From a virus (taxonomy: Duplodnaviria > Heunggongvirae > Uroviricota > Caudoviricetes): a stretch of DNA of 7,330 nt. The number at the start of each line of letters is the position of its first letter. Within the stretch, counting starts at the first letter, position 1. The stretch lies in the IMG/VR virus record IMGVR_UViG_2609459769_000015, one strand, 5' to 3'. The notes beneath the pieces are model-generated. The model searched no databases. It was not told the origin of the DNA and saw only the letters and a program-made list of their open reading frames with translations. The position numbers and the translations under genes are program-made. Of the stretch, positions 219 to 7,330 are shown piece by piece.

Positions 219-473
219 ATGCCAGAAATTAAAGGCACCGTCACTGAAGACCTGGTAAAACAGGCACTGTATTCCGGTGAAGTAAATAAGTTGCTGAAAG
301 CGCAGGTCCGCAAGGATTTTGAGGCACAAATCGACACTTACGTTGATGAAGTGCTGGCAAAACTTATTGGGCCAGCAGTTGCGGCCAGTGATGCTGATAA
401 TGAGCCGAAAACCGACGCGCAGCCAGAGCAACCAGACCCGGCTCAGCCCGGAACTGACAGTACCATGATGTAA
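219..473 (+). CDS. Hypothetical acidic protein (84 aa) with Pro/Gln/Asp-rich C-terminal tail
   Basis: ATG at 219 preceded by strong Shine-Dalgarno AAGGAGG (205-211); natural-looking composition; stable hairpin immediately after the stop. Confidence 0.5.
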   Translation: MPEIKGTVTEDLVKQALYSGEVNKLLKAQVRKDFEAQIDTYVDEVLAKLIGPAVAASDADNEPKTDAQPEQPDPAQPGTDSTMM

Positions 474-1057: not shown

Positions 1058-1147
1058 GATCAAACTCATAAATTTTCGCTAATGACATTTCGTGTTATTT
1101 GTTGTATCAATTAAATAAATCAAATCGATCGTTTTTGTCGATCGATT
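1058..1147. promoter_or_regulatory. com-mom upstream control region: three GATC (Dam) sites at 1058, 1127 and 1140, the latter two inside a perfect 9-bp inverted repeat AATCGATCG-N7-CGATCGATT (1123-1147)
   Basis: Read directly from sequence; AT-rich 250-bp intergenic region between divergent genes; candidate -35 ATGACA (1082-1087) and -10 TATCAA (1105-1110) are weak. Confidence 0.5.
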
Positions 1148-1190
1148 GAGTGATAAAGATATCAACAACAAAGCAGGAGGTTATGCGGCC

Positions 1191-1391
1191 ATGTATCGAA
1201 ACATACGGTGCCGACATTGTAACAAGCTACTGGCACGAGCCAGCTTCAGTTATCTGGAAGTTAAATGTCCGCGCTGTAAAACCCTCAATCAAATCACATC
1301 TCAGAGCGCCACAGAGCACCCCACATACACAAGGAAATCCTGTCGTGGGGAACAGAAAGCAAGTTACATCCCGTATCATCAGCACGCCTGA
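1191..1391 (+). CDS. com: Com-like zinc-finger translational activator (66 aa), Mu Com family
   Basis: ATG 1191 preceded by AGGAGG (1175-1180); Cys4 pattern CRHC...CPRC ([30 protein letters not shown]) closely resembles phage Mu Com; 3' end overlaps the start of the mom-like ORF as in Mu. Confidence 0.85.
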
Positions 1392-2082
1392 ACTTATTCA
1401 CTATAACGACAATATCGTCGGTTATGGCTCCCGTGAGTTACGGGTTGAGACAATAAGTTGCTGGCTGGCCCGGCTGGTCGTCGTCAATAAACATTACAGC
1501 CATCGTTTCGTAAATAATTCCTACCTTCATCTGGGCATATTTTCAGAACGGGAGCTGGTTGGCGTAATGCAATGGGGTTATGCCCTTAATCCAAACAATG
1601 GTGCACGCGTCGTAACTGGCACGCAGAACCGCGAATATATGGAGCTTAACCGGTTATGGCTGCATGACTGTATGCCGAGAAACTCCGAATCAAGGGCAAT
1701 CAGTTACGCGCTCAAACTAATCAGACAACTTTATCCGCAGGTGCAGTGGGTTCAGTCGTTTGCAGATGAGCGTTGTGGCTGTCTTGGTGTCGTGTACCAG
1801 GCAAGCAATTTTGATTATGTAGGCAGTCATGAAACAACATTCTATGAACTTGATGGCGAGTGGTATCACGAGATTTGCAAGAATGCAATCAAACGAGGAG
1901 GACAGCGAGGTGAACATCTGCGGGCTAATATCGACAGAGCCAGTGTTCATAAATTCCGTCAGTTTCGTTACATCCGGTTTCTGGACAAGAGAGCCAGAAA
2001 ACGCCTTAACACAAAGCTATTCAAAGTCCAGCCTTACCCAAAACCACAAACAGTTAAAACTGGTTTGAAAGAGAGTGAATGA
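1345..2082 (+). CDS. mom: Mom-like DNA modification protein (acyltransferase-fold adenine-modifying enzyme), about 245 aa if initiated at GTG 1345
   Basis: Long ORF overlapping com out of frame; motifs KHYSH, NSESR, SFAD recalled from Mu Mom; candidate start GTG 1345 with AAGGAAA (1331-1337) upstream; start position is uncertain (the ORF is open from 1150). Confidence 0.75.
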
Positions 2083-2117
2083 ACGCTTAAAAACTCATTC
2101 TAAAACTCAAAAGAAAA

Positions 2118-2158
2118 GCGCCGATTTAGTATCAAATAAGTTGCGTATCGGCGTTTTT
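2118..2158. terminator. Candidate bidirectional intrinsic terminator between convergent mom and dam: stem CGCCGAT / ATCGGCG (2119-2125 / 2147-2153), T5 on plus strand, T-rich run on minus strand
   Basis: Inverted repeat with 21-nt loop, followed by TTTTT (2154-2158) and preceded by AAAAGAAAA (2109-2117) which gives a U-tract for the opposite strand; the loop is long, hence moderate confidence. Confidence 0.4.
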
Positions 2159-2193
2159 CAGCGGTATCAAATGAAATGCAAATCGGTATCAAA
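2128..2193. repeat. Three direct copies of GTATCAAA (2129, 2164, 2186), two within an exact 10-bp repeat CGGTATCAAA (2162-2171 and 2184-2193, 22 bp apart)
   Basis: Read directly from sequence in the mom-dam intergenic region; function unknown. Confidence 0.4.
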
Positions 2194-2244
2194 AAAATCG
2201 CCGCGCTATATTAAAGCCGCTGCAGTTGTTCATATCAGCATGGC

Positions 2245-3102
2245 TCATGCACGCACTCCGTACACGGCAGAACTATCCACGCCACGCGAAGGATCAAATC
2301 CCACCCAGCAGCGCGCCCCAGAAACAGCGATGATTTCTGTTGCAGATTTACTCTCGCCAGCCGACACGCCGATGCTGCGTTTTGCCTTGATGTAGTGGTG
2401 AGTGAAATTTCGATACAGCGAACGGATCAGGGATGTGTCACTGTTAGAAACAATGACTGGATGACCTTCTGATGATCGATATTCAAGAACAGATGCCAGG
2501 TGATACTGGTCATCTTCAGTGAAGCCGTTAGTGTGATAGCCGGAAAACGTACCGTCATAAGGCGGATCGCAATACACCACATCCCCCACCTGCAGCATCG
2601 CCAGCGTTTCATCAAAGCTGGCGCAGATAAACGTTGCTTGCTGGGCTTTCTCTGCAAATGCGCGAATTTCTTTTTCAGGGAAATACGGATTTTTATAATT
2701 ACCGTATGGAATGTTGAAATGCCCGCTCTTGTTATAACGACATAACCCACGGTAACCATGACGATTGAGATACAGGAAATATACCGCTTTCATGAAATCA
2801 GTAATTTCAGTGGAGTAATTAAACTCCTGCCTTATGTTGTAATAAGCCAACTCCCTGTTTGCTTCCTCAAATAAAGCTCTGGCACGAGATATAAACGCCT
2901 CGCAATCAGCAGCAACCTTTTTATAGAGGTTGATTAAATCAGGATTAATATCCGCAACAAGATAGCTGGGGTAATCCGTCTCCATCATCACAGCACAGGA
3001 ACCCGCGAAAGGTTCAACCAGTCGCGGGCCAGCAGGAAGGTGTTTTTTCAGTTCGGACATTACGGCGGTTTTATTTCCCGCCCATTTCAGGATGGTGCTC
3101 AT
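2245..3102 (-). CDS. dam: DNA adenine methyltransferase, Dam family (D12-class N6-adenine MTase), 285 aa
   Basis: Strong resemblance to E. coli Dam along the length: [15 protein letters not shown] (AdoMet motif), [15 protein letters not shown], catalytic DPPY; start ATG at 3100-3102 overlaps the upstream stop in an ATGA junction. Confidence 0.9.
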
Positions 3103-3326
3103 ACAGCACCCCCGTTGTAATGTTTGCCTTTCAGCTCTGCGATTTCCTGACAGGTAATGCAAAGCTGCACACCCGGAATGGCACGGCGGCGTGCTGGCGG
3201 AATTGGCGCTTCACACTCAACGCAAAGCACGCGGGACACGCCCGGCGTTTTGGCACGGGCAGCACGGATATGGCGCTGGCGTTCTTCTTCAACGCGCTGC
3301 TGTACGAGATCCATTGCATCAGCCAT
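3099..3326 (-). CDS. TraR/DksA-family C4 zinc-finger protein (75 aa)
   Basis: CVEC...(17 aa)...CITC four-cysteine motif and size typical of phage TraR-like proteins; start overlaps the upstream gene stop (TAATG). Confidence 0.8.
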   Translation of the reverse strand: MADAMDLVQQRVEEERQRHIRAARAKTPGVSRVLCVECEAPIPPARRRAIPGVQLCITCQEIAELKGKHYNGGAV

Positions 3327-3559
3327 TAGTGGATCTCCTGCGCTTCGTTCTGGATTGCTTCAGCAGTCACACGCAGCAGTTCTGCCGCTTCCACGTGGTT
3401 TAGCTGACGGGATGAGATATGACACGCCAGGCTATCAAGGCGAGCTGCCATTGCTTCAGCCCTTGCCCGGCGTTCTTCCAGACGAGCCTCTGTCAGTAAA
3501 ATATTAAGCCCTGCGTCATCCGGTCCGGTTTTAGTCGTGAGGGTTTCAATATTACGCAT
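3326..3559 (-). CDS. Hypothetical early protein (77 aa), Ala/Arg/Glu-rich helical
   Basis: ATG (reverse complement of 3557-3559) preceded by AGGAG with 8-nt spacer; translationally coupled to the TraR-like gene; resembles small conserved proteins of P2-like early operons. Confidence 0.6.
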   Translation of the reverse strand: MRNIETLTTKTGPDDAGLNILLTEARLEERRARAEAMAARLDSLACHISSRQLNHVEAAELLRVTAEAIQNEAQEIH

Positions 3560-3626
3560 AATCAATTCTCCTGAATTTAGATAAAGGGATGCCCGGCGGG
3601 TTTACGCCATTAATTTCATTAGTTGG

Positions 3627-3968
3627 TTAATTCGGCATGGTTAGCCGTCTGGGAAATAAGCTCACCACTGCACGAAAATGATTCATTGCTTTAATCAGCT
3701 CCCGCTTTTCGTCAGTGGTCAGCTCATTAATGCTGATGCTATGACGTTCAGCTGGAATTTTTGCCATAAAGAATATGGCAGCCAGTGCCCGTTTATTTTG
3801 TTCATTATTGATATCCCGTGGATCACGCATATCTTTAATAAACCGCTCAAGCTCTGACTCAATATTCAGGCCAAAAACTTTCGCCCTTAACTCCGCAATG
3901 TGATTAAGTCCATTCAGGCGTTCACCGGGGCTTAATGGAACAGTTGCTGCAGCGCCATTAATTGCCAT
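3627..3968 (-). CDS. Hypothetical early protein (113 aa)
   Basis: ATG (reverse complement of 3966-3968) with G-rich RBS; ordinary protein-like composition; no family recognised by eye. Confidence 0.55.
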   Translation of the reverse strand: MAINGAAATVPLSPGERLNGLNHIAELRAKVFGLNIESELERFIKDMRDPRDINNEQNKRALAAIFFMAKIPAERHSISINELTTDEKRELIKAMNHFRAVVSLFPRRLTMPN

Positions 3969-3990
3969 ACTTCATATCCCCCAAACGCAG

Positions 3991-4215
3991 CTATCGTTCT
4001 TTGTTCTTACGGTAACGCTCAAGAGGAGATACATTTTTTCGTATCGTCTCTTTAACCTGCTCTCCCCGTAAAAACGTCCCATCCTTTAACGCGAAAAAGT
4101 AACTGCCATCGCCCGACAATGACGGATAGCAACAGAGCAAATCATCTTCAGGTACTGAATAACTCTCCCCTCTGTAACGAAACTGATAAACCACTTCACT
4201 TTCTGCCGCATACAT
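3991..4215 (-). CDS. Hypothetical early protein (74 aa)
   Basis: ATG (reverse complement of 4213-4215) preceded by GGAGAAAG; natural-looking sequence; overlaps the 3' extension of the upstream ORF in another frame. Confidence 0.6.
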   Translation of the reverse strand: MYAAESEVVYQFRYRGESYSVPEDDLLCCYPSLSGDGSYFFALKDGTFLRGEQVKETIRKNVSPLERYRKNKER

Positions 4216-4382
4216 TTGGACTTTCTCCGTTTCCTCGTGGTCAATTCAGACAGCAATTCATCTTGTGAATGACATGGATGCCAGCGTTTTCCATCCTCAC
4301 CCGTGATCCAGCCGTGACCGTAGTGCATTGCCGGGCTTTGTTTTACCAGCAGCGATGCAAATGATGGTTCTTTCGTCAGCAT
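4086..4382 (-). CDS. Hypothetical early protein downstream of cII (position of 186 fil); 98 aa as it stands, but the last ~42 aa look like out-of-frame read-through
   Basis: ATG (reverse complement of 4380-4382) preceded by GAGGTG; N-terminal 56 aa look protein-like, C-terminal part (Cys/Arg/Trp-rich) overlaps the 3991..4215 gene for 130 nt. Confidence 0.4.
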   Translation of the reverse strand: MLTKEPSFASLLVKQSPAMHYGHGWITGEDGKRWHPCHSQDELLSELTTRKRRKSKCMRQKVKWFISFVTEGRVIQYLKMICSVAIRHCRAMAVTFSR

Positions 4383-4389
4383 AAGCACC

Positions 4390-4899
4390 TCACAGCAAAC
4401 CGAATGAAGCACCGAGGCCAGTCACGGTATCAACTGCACTCGCCATCGCAGGGTTAGCCTGTAAACGGGCCTGCAATGAAACAGCAGCCAACGCCATCAG
4501 TCGTGTTACAGAGTTAATGCTGCTGATAGCATCACGACGACCTGCACTGGTTTTTACATCGCCAGATACCGCACCTGCAGCAACACGCCCGATCTCTGCG
4601 GTTGCACTCATGACGTAATGTGGCAGTTTCTCTTTTGCCACCTCATTAATTGGTACGCATGGCAGGCAGTGAATCTGTGCCAGAAAACCATCTACCAACG
4701 TTGAATCTTCAGTCAGATCGGTAAGCAGCCAGATTTCTGGTGCGGTTAATAAATGAGGTTGAGCTGGGTTCAGCTTGTTCCGCAGAATCTGCACATTCAT
4801 GCCCGCACGTTCTGCCAGTTGCACCAGATTGTGGCGCAGTGCGAATGCACGACAGGCTTCATCAAAATGTGGATGTTTGGAAACTTGGTAATCAAACAT
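4390..4899 (-). CDS. cII: Phage 186-type CII lysogeny-establishment activator (169 aa)
   Basis: Sequence [19 protein letters not shown]...[28 protein letters not shown] closely matches what I recall of phage 186 CII; ATG at 4897-4899 (reverse) is preferred over the TTG at 4906-4908 given by the ORF track. Confidence 0.85.
4873..4899. promoter_or_regulatory. Candidate CII operator: inverted 7-bp half-sites ATGTTTG (4873-4879) and CAAACAT (4893-4899), 20 bp centre-to-centre, overlapping the cII start codon; implies a rightward CII-dependent establishment promoter reading antisense through apl toward cI
   Basis: Half-sites read directly; the sequence and two-helical-turn spacing match my recollection of the 186 CII binding site at pE; weak -10-like ACTTAT at 4915-4920. 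Confidence 0.5.
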
Positions 4900-4963
4900 G
4901 GTTTTCAACTCCGAACTTATCGCAAAATCGAACTCAGCGTCTTATTGCGAAAATAGACGTCTA

Positions 4964-5167
4964 TTAAGCAGACAAAGCATCAACAGTCAGAGCAGCCAGG
5001 TTAATCATTACCTTTTCACGTTTTTTGTCTTTACGAAGACGATGACGAGGTAGTCGGCCATCAGCCAACATGTCGTTAATCGTATCAATAGAAAGGCCAG
5101 TCAGTTCGCTATAACGTTCGATTGTGACATGTGGTGTATTCAGAGTAATTGAAATGTTAGGTGTCAT
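4964..5167 (-). CDS. apl: Apl/Cox-family excisionase and transcriptional regulator (67 aa), first gene of the lytic operon
   Basis: HTH segment [25 protein letters not shown] resembles P2 Cox / 186 Apl; position immediately opposite cI across the switch region. Confidence 0.65.
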
Positions 5168-5312
5168 AAGGCAACATTCCTTCTAGATATGGCTTGTGGC
5201 GAGCCGTTGTTTGTCGTGATTAGTAGTGAAGGCTCCAAAAGAACACTTCTGGTTCAACTTTAAGATCGCTTTTGGAATCTGTCAACGAATTTTGGATTTC
5301 TTTGGAGGACTT
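5168..5312. promoter_or_regulatory. Lysis-lysogeny switch region. Candidate leftward lytic promoter (pR-like): -35 TTGACA (minus strand, 5280-5285), 17-bp spacer, -10 TAAAGT (5257-5262). Weaker candidate rightward promoter (pL-like): -35 GTGTCA 5161-5166, -10 TAGATA 5184-5189
   Basis: Hexamers read from sequence; face-to-face arrangement is that known for 186/P2; helically phased TTTGGA repeats at 5271, 5291, 5301 and TGTGGA at 5311 overlap the -35. Confidence 0.45.
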
Positions 5313-5882
5313 GTGGATTTCAATAGCGGCGGTAAGAAAGCCATAGAACGTTTAGTTGAAGCATATGGGTTCGGTACCCGTCAGGCTCTCTGTGATCATT
5401 TAGGTGTTTCTAAGAGCACCATGGCAACGCGCTATATGCGTGATATTTTTCCAGCAGATTGGGTAATCCAGTGCGCCCTTGAAACGGGCACCTCGCTTAA
5501 TTGGCTAACAACAGGGCATGGTTCAAAGCAAGCATCAGCAAATACAAATACTATAGAAGTAGAAAAATATTTATTGTCTGATGGAGCATTGCAGAAAGAC
5601 GGTTTTTATATTTTTGATAAGGGATTTCTACCCTCTACGTTTAAAAAACCTTTTGTCATCACAGATAACAATTCTGAATTTATTTGTGATAAAGAATTTG
5701 ATGATATACGTGATGGTAAATGGGTAATAAGTATTGATGGCGAAATAACGATCCGTGACATTACTCGTTTACCCGGTGGAAGAATCTTCGTCGAGGGTGG
5801 AAACAGAGCCTTCGAATGCAAGATAGAAGACATTGAAATAATTGGTAAAATTATAAGTTTAACAGTCAAGTATGTTAAATAG
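5313..5882 (+). CDS. cI: Phage 186-type CI immunity repressor (189 aa from GTG 5313; the ORF is open from GTG 5226)
   Basis: N-terminal HTH region ERLVEAYGF...CALETGTSLNWLTTGHG matches the 186 CI repressor family; GGAGG (5304-5308) precedes GTG 5313; the C-terminal half is AT-rich. Confidence 0.85.
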   Translation: MDFNSGGKKAIERLVEAYGFGTRQALCDHLGVSKSTMATRYMRDIFPADWVIQCALETGTSLNWLTTGHGSKQASANTNTIEVEKYLLSDGALQKDGFYIFDKGFLPSTFKKPFVITDNNSEFICDKEFDDIRDGKWVISIDGEITIRDITRLPGGRIFVEGGNRAFECKIEDIEIIGKIISLTVKYVK

Positions 5883-5897
5883 TACCGGGAGGAAACT

Positions 5898-6089
5898 ATG
5901 CTTGGTAAGGTATTTTTTGTGGTTTTGTCATGTTCTTTGTTATTAAACCCACTAACTACCTATGCTAGAAATTATCCCTGCTCAGGGAAAAAGGGAGGTG
6001 TTTCTCACTGTACCTCAGATGGCAAATTCGTTTGCAATGATGGAACTATTAGTAAATCCAAAAAAATCTGTACTAAAAACTCACGATAA
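5898..6089 (+). CDS. Small secreted Cys-rich protein (63 aa): signal peptide then a ~40-aa basic mature peptide with 4 Cys; moron between cI and int
   Basis: ATG 5898 with strong GGGAGG RBS (5-nt spacer) 16 bp after the cI stop; hydrophobic N-terminus [18 protein letters not shown]; AT-rich relative to flanks. Confidence 0.6.
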
Positions 6090-6224
6090 CTTTTGCTTTT
6101 ATATCTGCGTCTAAAATAAAAATGAGCCGCAGGTTAACCGCAAAAGTTACATGCTCACATAGCAAAAAGAATAGCCAACTTCATGATGGCTTCAGTGAGA
6201 TGTATGGTCGTAGGATTTCATACA

Positions 6225-6253
6225 TTGACACTGGTTATACATACAGTAAAAAT
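6225..6253 (+). promoter_or_regulatory. Near-consensus sigma70 promoter upstream of int (-35 TTGACA 6225-6230; -10 TAAAAA/AAAAAT 6247-6253) whose spacer is a LexA-box-like palindrome CTGGTTATACATACAG (6231-6246)
   Basis: Read from sequence; 13 of 16 positions match the CTGT-N8-ACAG LexA consensus (CTGG half-site as in ruvA box), with a perfect ACAGTA distal half. Confidence 0.4.
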
Positions 6254-6277
6254 GCTCTCTACTGGAGGGCATTTTTT

Positions 6278-7330
6278 ATGGCAGTACGAAAACTCACCAC
6301 AGGGAAATGGCTTTGCGAATGTTACCCCGCCGGACGTAGTGGGCGTCGTGTGCGTAAACAATTCGCCACCAAAGGCGAAGCTCTGGCTTTTGAGCGCCAC
6401 ACGATGGAAGAAACCGAAGCAAAGCCCTGGCTGGGTGAATCAGTGGATCGTCGAACACTGAAAGACGTAGTTGAGCTATGGTTCAAACTACATGGTAAAT
6501 CTCTGACAGCTGGGCAGCATGTCTATGACAAATTGCTGTTGATGGTTGACGCTCTGGGTAATCCTCTTGCAACCGATCTCACCTCTAAAATGTTTGCCCA
6601 CTATCGAGATAAACGCCTGACAGGCGAGATCTACTTCAGCGAGAAATGGAAGAAAGGAGCAAGCCCGGTCACCATTAACCTGGAGCAAAGCTATCTAAGT
6701 AGTGTTTTTAGCGAACTATCCCGTCTGGGCGAATGGTCGTATCCGAACCCACTGGAGAACATGCGAAAATTCACCATCGCAGAAAAAGAGATGGCATGGC
6801 TTACCCATGAGCAGATTGTTGAATTGCTGGCTGATTGCAAACGTCAGGACCCAATTCTGGCACTGGTAGTTAAGATATGCTTAAGCACAGGCGCACGCTG
6901 GCGTGAAGCCGTAAATCTTACCCGCTCACAGGTGACCAAATACCGAATTACCTTTGTCAGAACGAAGGGGAAGAAAAACAGAAGCATCCCTATCAGTAAA
7001 GAGCTTTACGAAGAGATCATGGCGCTTGATGGGTTCAATTTCTTTACAGACTACTATTTTCAATTTTTATCCGTGATGGAAAAAACGTCTATCGTGCTCC
7101 CTCGCGGTCAACTCACACACGTTCTGCGCCATACGTTTGCGGCGCACTTCATGATGTCGGGTGGAAACATTCTCGCCTTACAAAAAATTCTCGGACACCA
7201 CGATATAAAAATGACTATGCGTTACGCACATCTGGCACCAGATCATCTGGAAACGGCGCTCCGTTTCAATCCTCTGGCAACGCTGCCAAGTGGCGACAAA
7301 GTGGCGGCAGCGGTTGGCATTACCCCGTAA
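6278..7330 (+). CDS. int: Tyrosine site-specific integrase, P2/186 family (350 aa)
   Basis: N-terminus MAVRKLTTGKW...RKQFATKGEALAFERHT parallels P2 Int; catalytic region LSTGARWREA, HVLRHTFAAHF, MRYAHL with active-site Tyr; ATG 6278 preceded by GGAGGG (6265-6270); stop is the last codon of the window. Confidence 0.9.
   Translation: MAVRKLTTGKWLCECYPAGRSGRRVRKQFATKGEALAFERHTMEETEAKPWLGESVDRRTLKDVVELWFKLHGKSLTAGQHVYDKLLLMVDALGNPLATDLTSKMFAHYRDKRLTGEIYFSEKWKKGASPVTINLEQSYLSSVFSELSRLGEWSYPNPLENMRKFTIAEKEMAWLTHEQIVELLADCKRQDPILALVVKICLSTGARWREAVNLTRSQVTKYRITFVRTKGKKNRSIPISKELYEEIMALDGFNFFTDYYFQFLSVMEKTSIVLPRGQLTHVLRHTFAAHFMMSGGNILALQKILGHHDIKMTMRYAHLAPDHLETALRFNPLATLPSGDKVAAAVGITP

Follow-up and report, generated by a model that had tools for sequence, protein, structure and literature searches.

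The closest described counterpart of the locus analysed here is the establishment promoter pE of coliphage 186 (Eganvirus ev186), which is activated by the phage protein CII. It was found that 186 CII binds an inverted repeat whose half-sites are separated by two helical turns and have their centres at -38 and -58 of pE, and that it contacts the alpha and sigma subunits (PMC6593788). The basal activity of pE is negligible, and one base change in the -10 element abolishes activation and leaves CII binding unaffected (PMC6593788). In the 186 genome (GenBank NC_001317), the cII start codon is located at 23435, the feature "CII, activate pE" occupies 23435-23462 from this ATG, and pE is annotated as complement(23400..23462). 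The sequence of the site is ATGTTTG-ATTTTCAGGTTTC-CAAACAT; the GenBank feature together with the 186 sequence is our basis for the 186 half-site sequence. When +1 is set at 23400, the centre of the proximal half-site (23438) falls at -38. This annotated start is 8 nt past the end of the hexamer TAAAGT and, given the start at 23400 and the published positions of -38 and -58, TAAAGT, 21 nt past the half-site, is the only plausible -10 of 186 pE. Another hexamer, TACAAT, 10 nt past the proximal half-site, was also considered as the -10, and it was ruled out by the GenBank coordinates of pE and the published half-site centres.

The same logic has been known in phage lambda, where CII, an unstable activator produced from the lytic promoter, fires a promoter in or next to its own gene. 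This promoter, pRE, is likewise convergent with pR, and its transcript traverses the lytic operon in reverse to reach cI (PMC7708051, PMC6593788). The lambda CII protein and the CII described here belong to unrelated families. The lambda protein binds direct TTGC repeats that flank the -35 of pRE, and not an inverted repeat with a spacing of 20 bp. The switch of phage P2 (C / Cox, Pe / Pc) shares with our locus the Peduoviridae backbone, the face-to-face arrangement of lytic and lysogenic promoters, and a Cox-like excisionase-repressor (phrog_575 in our case). P2-type phages possess neither cII nor an establishment promoter (PMC11126057), whereas the locus examined here has cII and a predicted establishment promoter.

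The DNA analysed is a single stretch of 7,330 nt, hereafter called the window, which runs opposite to the usual map of 186. From 2211 to 7330 it matches a P2/186-like E. coli prophage with 100% identity, and the RefSeq annotation of this identical prophage gives the same CDS boundaries as those in the window (Table 1). The 1.6-kb switch region is present in 562 of 5,426 complete E. coli genomes at a coverage of at least 80%. The genes are arranged as in 186, in the order int-cI-(pL/pR)-apl-cII-fil, and Fil and Int are present and intact as judged from Pfam/PHROG assignments. The initial annotation had described cI and cII as 186-like, and the protein families agree with this description. The window CII belongs to PF06892 (Phage_CP76, the 186 CII family; E = 3e-42), has an N-terminal helix-turn-helix, and is 69% identical to 186 CII (117/169) in an ungapped alignment. 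Within the helix-turn-helix, one residue differs from 186, namely T38I in the recognition helix. The window CI carries both 186-type domains, PF07022 and PF16452. Since it is just 33% identical to 186 CI, the immunity of this prophage is probably different from that of 186, that is, heteroimmune. The 67-aa protein at the position of Apl is assigned to phrog_575 ("Cox-like excisionase and repressor") and shows almost no similarity to 186 Apl, with a weak match at the N-terminus.

Another difference from 186 is the presence of a 63-aa ORF between cI and int. This ORF has no Pfam match and is missing from 186, in which cI and int are directly adjacent. Its product has a hydrophobic N-terminus and is Cys-rich, and in some RefSeq copies it is named "YdcA family protein". 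It looks like a moron and would share the pL/pE transcripts with cI and int.

Table 1. Coordinates of the genes and regulatory elements in the 7,330-nt window.
Feature	Position	Strand	Remarks
DUF826	219-473		Mu-like segment
Com zinc ribbon	1146-1391		Mu-like segment
Mom	within 1150-2082		PF25680
cII, activator	4390-4899	minus	169 aa; ATG at 4899-4897; RefSeq CDS agrees
Distal CII half-site ATGTTTG (plus strand)	4873-4879		cII codons 7-9 (S K H) on minus
Spacer between half-sites, 13 nt	4880-4892		would hold the upstream part of the pE -35 region
Proximal CII half-site CAAACAT (plus strand)	4893-4899		cII start ATGTTTG on minus; codons 1-3 (M F D)
cII Shine-Dalgarno GGAG (CTCC on plus)	4909-4912	minus	9 nt upstream of ATG; between the pE -35 and -10 positions
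Predicted pE -10 hexamer CAAAAT	4923-4928	plus	23 nt past the proximal half-site
Predicted pE start, about 4936	4935-4937	plus	186 hexamer-to-start distance applied
apl/cox-like excisionase-repressor gene	4964-5167	minus	67 aa; phrog_575, E = 1e-29
Candidate pL maintenance promoter	5149-5177	plus	TTGAAA 5149-5154, 17 nt, CAACAT 5172-5177; predicted
pR lytic promoter	5257-5285	minus	TTGACA 5285-5280, 17 nt, TAAAGT 5262-5257; 10/12 consensus matches
cI Shine-Dalgarno GGAGGA	5305-5310	plus
cI repressor	5313-5882	plus	189 aa, GTG start; PF07022 + PF16452; RefSeq CDS coordinates
Small ORF between cI and int	5898-6089	plus	63 aa
int (integrase)	6278-7330	plus	downstream in the same lysogenic operon as cI; PF24624 + PF00589; RefSeq CDS

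On the plus strand, positions 4873-4899 read ATGTTTG-GAAACTTGGTAAT-CAAACAT, a perfect 7-bp inverted repeat in which the half-site centres, 4876 and 4896, are 20 bp apart. The CAT at 4897-4899 is the cII ATG on the minus strand, so that the repeat starts exactly at the cII start codon. This operator pattern has a sole match in the window even when up to two mismatches are allowed (0.07 matches are expected at that tolerance), and by our own arithmetic 7.3 kb should contain about 3e-5 exact copies of a 14-base self-complementary pattern. The initial annotation had reported two half-sites with a centre-to-centre distance of 20 bp at the 5' end of cII, just as they are found here, and had likened them to the 186 CII site. 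The comparison with the annotated 186 site bears out this likeness, in that the half-sites ATGTTTG / CAAACAT, the 13-nt spacer length and the start at the cII ATG are identical in both. A deviating half-site or spacing in 186, which the initial annotation had named as grounds for refutation, is thus not seen. It is very likely that the inverted repeat is the operator of the prophage's own 186-type CII and a part of a CII-dependent pE on the plus strand. The operator is identical to the 186 site, the proteins are cognate, and both the operator and the -10 are conserved family-wide, as described below.

Both half-sites are located wholly within coding sequence, in cII codons 1-3 and 7-9, and the residues encoded there are conserved. 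The repeat might then be a by-product of the conserved CII N-terminus (M-F-D...S-K-H), having no function at the DNA level here. Against this stands the pattern of synonymous codon use. When cII was dereplicated to 75 representatives with less than 97% nucleotide identity, 97 codons were amino-acid-conserved and degenerate. Codon 2 (Phe2, TTT in 69/69) and codon 8 (Lys8, AAA in 67/67) are the sole invariant ones among these 97 codons, both are inside the half-sites, and codon 9 (CAT) comes 4th. Over the 97 codons, the most frequent codon has a median share of 0.57; the synonymous positions of the half-sites are thus the most constrained in cII. Constraints on translation initiation can likewise bias codon use at the 5' end of a gene. 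A different kind of evidence comes from a divergent CII clade (57-61% identity; loci L064, L068-L071 and L073, with the cII start at about 2001-2027), in which the half-sites have changed to ATGTTAG / ATGTGA(G/C) and the recognition helix reads IKPHTLYNKL, compared with MNVQ(T/I)LRNKL. This joint change is a natural specificity switch, with the Q-to-H and R-to-Y positions as candidate base contacts. The synonymous constraint and the covariation of half-sites with the recognition helix argue for a DNA-level function, and they lend indirect support to CII binding at the site and to CII-dependent activation. In addition, the identical sequence in 186 is an annotated CII site, and a -10 lies at a fixed distance from the repeat in otherwise unrelated spacers. 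A repeat produced by coding constraint alone is hardly credible in view of these observations.

The region between the operator and apl differs considerably between the two phages. The apl-cII spacer is 64 bp long in the window and 30 bp in 186, and the two sequences are unrelated, so that the -10 of 186 is not transferable by alignment alone. We surveyed 161 CII-encoding sequences, consisting of 160 related loci (186 included) and the window, with CII identities of 54-100%. The sequences were anchored on the proximal half-site, and a -10-like hexamer was defined by A at the second position, T at the sixth position, and at least 4/6 matches to TATAAT. The 13-nt spacer between the half-sites is constant in length in nearly all of the 161 sequences and variable in sequence. 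The apl-cII spacers fall into about 35 sequence clusters and are otherwise unrelated between lineages. A -10-like hexamer is present 20-23 nt past the proximal half-site in 32 of the 35 spacer clusters, and other 4-nt bins contain one in at most 4/35. Counted by sequence, 157/161 have the hexamer at 21-23 nt; an offset of 21 nt is seen in 57 sequences, one of 22 nt in 78, and one of 23 nt in 21. The window's spacer type makes up the 23-nt class, all members of which (21/21, CII identity 79-100%) have CAAAAT at this distance. Alignment A1, composed of eight sequences that represent different spacer types, shows no variation at A4924, A4926 and T4928.

From this survey, CAAAAT at 4923-4928 is predicted as the -10 of the window pE. 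The initial annotation had drawn the right edge of the site at 4927, one base short of this hexamer. CAAAAT matches the consensus at 4/6 positions, and the -35 positions (GGTTTT / TGGTTT) match TTGACA at no more than 2/6. The architecture, without a -35 and with an A2/T6 hexamer downstream of the operator, is the same as that of 186 pE. The difference lies in the distance, since CAAAAT of the window is 23 nt and TAAAGT of 186 is 21 nt from the proximal half-site. With the hexamer-to-start distance of 186, +1 would be near 4936. The half-site centres would then fall near -40 and -60, compared with -38 and -58 in 186, because the hexamer is 23 nt and not 21 nt from the half-site. The predicted start is located in the intergenic spacer, whereas that of 186 is in the 3' end of apl.

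Even with a real operator that CII binds, pE might be weak or dead in this spacer type because of a poorly placed -10 (23 nt and not 21-22 nt), and establishment might proceed via pL alone or by another route. The 23-nt offset is found in the window's spacer type alone, the hexamer reaches only 4/6 consensus matches, and a 2-bp shift can matter to an activator in contact with sigma. A consensus promoter scan of 4700-5450 was also blank at pE; pR was called, and pE and pL were not. The miss of pE is expected because an activator-dependent promoter has no -35, and the scan is uninformative there. Other observations speak for an active promoter. First, CII proteins of 100% identity occur with a spacer of 22 nt as well as with one of 23 nt, and the distance in 186 is 21 nt, which indicates that the family tolerates 21-23 nt. 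Second, CAAAAT at 23 nt is kept across CII of 79-100% identity while the sequence farther downstream diverges. Third, the switch region is widespread in E. coli. A weak or dead pE therefore appears improbable, and the promoter of the window is predicted to be active and to tolerate the distance between operator and -10 that is 2 bp longer. A different situation is found in one locus of Enterobacter nematophilus (L011; cII start at about 2001), where the distal half-site is disrupted (ATGCTGA), the 186-type spacer is shortened, and no -10-like hexamer is present at 21-23 nt. In this locus, pE has apparently decayed. The window site itself is best regarded as a copy of the 186 CII/pE system; the sequence comparisons support an ordinary, well-conserved copy with small architectural differences.

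The other promoters of the switch also resemble those of 186. The lytic promoter pR is the only consensus promoter found by the scan in 4700-5450. The candidate pL has the same placement relative to the ATG of the apl-like gene as the annotated 186 pL and is below the threshold of the consensus scan. In both phages pR and pL, a candidate in the window, face each other at a similar distance. A terminator-like hairpin is present at 5189-5207 on the plus strand, with 8 pairs and a weak T-rich tail (TGTTTGTCGT). It is located between the candidate pL and cI, and also between pE and cI, on the strand of the pL/pE transcripts and inside the overlap of pR and pL. This weak hairpin and the T38I change in the recognition helix of CII are points against the proposed CII-dependent pE.

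In 186, the -10 of pE is overlapped by the CI operator FR (ATTCAC-N5-GTGAAT), which is an accessory and not a defining element of the CII/pE module, and the words ATTCAC / GTGAAT recur in 186 at pB, FL and FR. At the window pE these words are absent and no equivalent of an FR-like CI operator was found, so that, unlike in 186, no recognisable FR-type operator covers the -10. The only word common to 4900-4965 and 5170-5420 is TTCAACT. With 4 copies in the window and 1.3 expected, its excess is not compelling. One copy lies by the CII operator (4904-4910, plus), another over the -10 and start of pR (5253-5259, plus), and another in the 5' end of cI (5354-5360, minus); the latter two are joined by a 19-nt imperfect inverted repeat (5241-5259 / 5354-5372). 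The TTCAACT copies or the 19-nt repeat may be operators of the window CI.

The surroundings of the -10 contain repeats of their own. In the window (4916-4964), a dyad is formed by TCGCAA (4920-4925) and TTGCGA (4945-4950), the direct repeats CTTATCGCAAAAT / CTTATTGCGAAAAT bracket the -10 and the predicted start, and the palindrome TAGACGTCTA is located at the apl stop (4955-4964). Related loci with other spacers have comparable elements. For example, L024, L030 and L031 (about 1947-1984) carry the dyad TTATCGCA-N21-TGCGATAA at the pE -10, and in L063 and L008 (about 1968-1985 each) elements bracket the -10; such flanking elements in relatives include AACTTG-cataat-CAAGTT and AGTTC-N8-GAACT. 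The corresponding dyad of 186 is the FR operator of CI. The dyads that flank the -10 in the other spacer types have no further copy near pR of the same locus, so they are not assignable to CI. No interpretable pattern was found for the direct repeats CTTATYGCRAAAAT and further repeat families. It is conceivable, if rather doubtful, that pE is regulated differently in the window's spacer type, in which the distance from operator to -10 is 2 bp longer and FR is missing, and that the dyad or repeats found there serve as a gatekeeper site. The factor that times the firing of pE could in such a case be the window CI, the Cox-like protein or a host factor. On this view, each immunity type might embed the -10 of pE in an operator of its own and keep the CII site universal.

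With the repeat read as the CII operator of an active pE, the following order of events can be proposed by analogy with 186. After infection, pR would transcribe the apl-like gene, cII and fil. Binding over its own start codon, to two ATGTTTG half-sites separated by two helical turns, CII would substitute for the missing -35 contact and bring RNA polymerase to CAAAAT. Binding as an oligomer, contact with alpha and sigma, and strong activation from a negligible basal level are expected from the work on 186. The transcript from about 4936 would then pass the apl-like gene in antisense orientation, cross pR/pL, and deliver the first burst of cI, followed by the small ORF and int. As in 186, pE would thus be antisense to apl and convergent with pR; the transcript is predicted to run about 314 bp against pR, compared with a pR-pE separation of 340 bp in 186. 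An antisense transcript across apl and pR into cI had been predicted in the initial annotation, and the presence of a -10-like hexamer at the family-typical distance, pointing to cI, is consistent with it. The site overlaps the cII ATG and is just downstream of the ribosome-binding site of cII, an arrangement that would also suit a CII whose main role is negative autoregulation, through a roadblock to transcription from pR or through a block of cII expression. Autoregulation as the main role leaves the conserved -10-like hexamer on the opposite strand unexplained, and we consider it very unlikely.

The circuit had also been called complete and probably functional. This holds for the switch, all parts of which are intact, but not for the prophage as a whole. 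The left part of the window, 1-2210, is the right (com-mom) end of a transposable prophage of the Mu-like kind. At the junction (2210/2211) it interrupts replication gene A 37 nt into the gene, which starts at 2248 on the minus strand and retains 12 codons. Among 5,426 complete E. coli genomes none has the junction, and in other genomes this Mu-like end adjoins unrelated genes. Since gene A is cut by this insertion, the 186-like prophage is probably replication-defective here, with the switch itself left intact. The insertion places the com-mom DNA-modification module tail to tail with the 186-like prophage's own gene for a Dam-type adenine methylase (2245-3102, PF02086; the whole arrangement spans 1146-3102). 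In Mu, expression of mom depends on Dam methylation. The juxtaposition is curious and probably accidental.

The current picture of lysogeny establishment is unchanged by these results, and their value lies mainly in annotation. The 186 CII operator and pE are recognisable from sequence in many enterobacterial P2/186-like prophages, and for the immunity type of the window the likely -10 and start of pE are now fixed. For the field of the 186 switch, the family survey indicates that conservation of the CII site extends to synonymous positions and that the -10 stays 21-23 nt from the operator despite the mosaic nature of the apl-cII spacer. Finally, the joint change of half-sites and recognition helix in one clade points to the residues of CII that may contact the bases of the operator.
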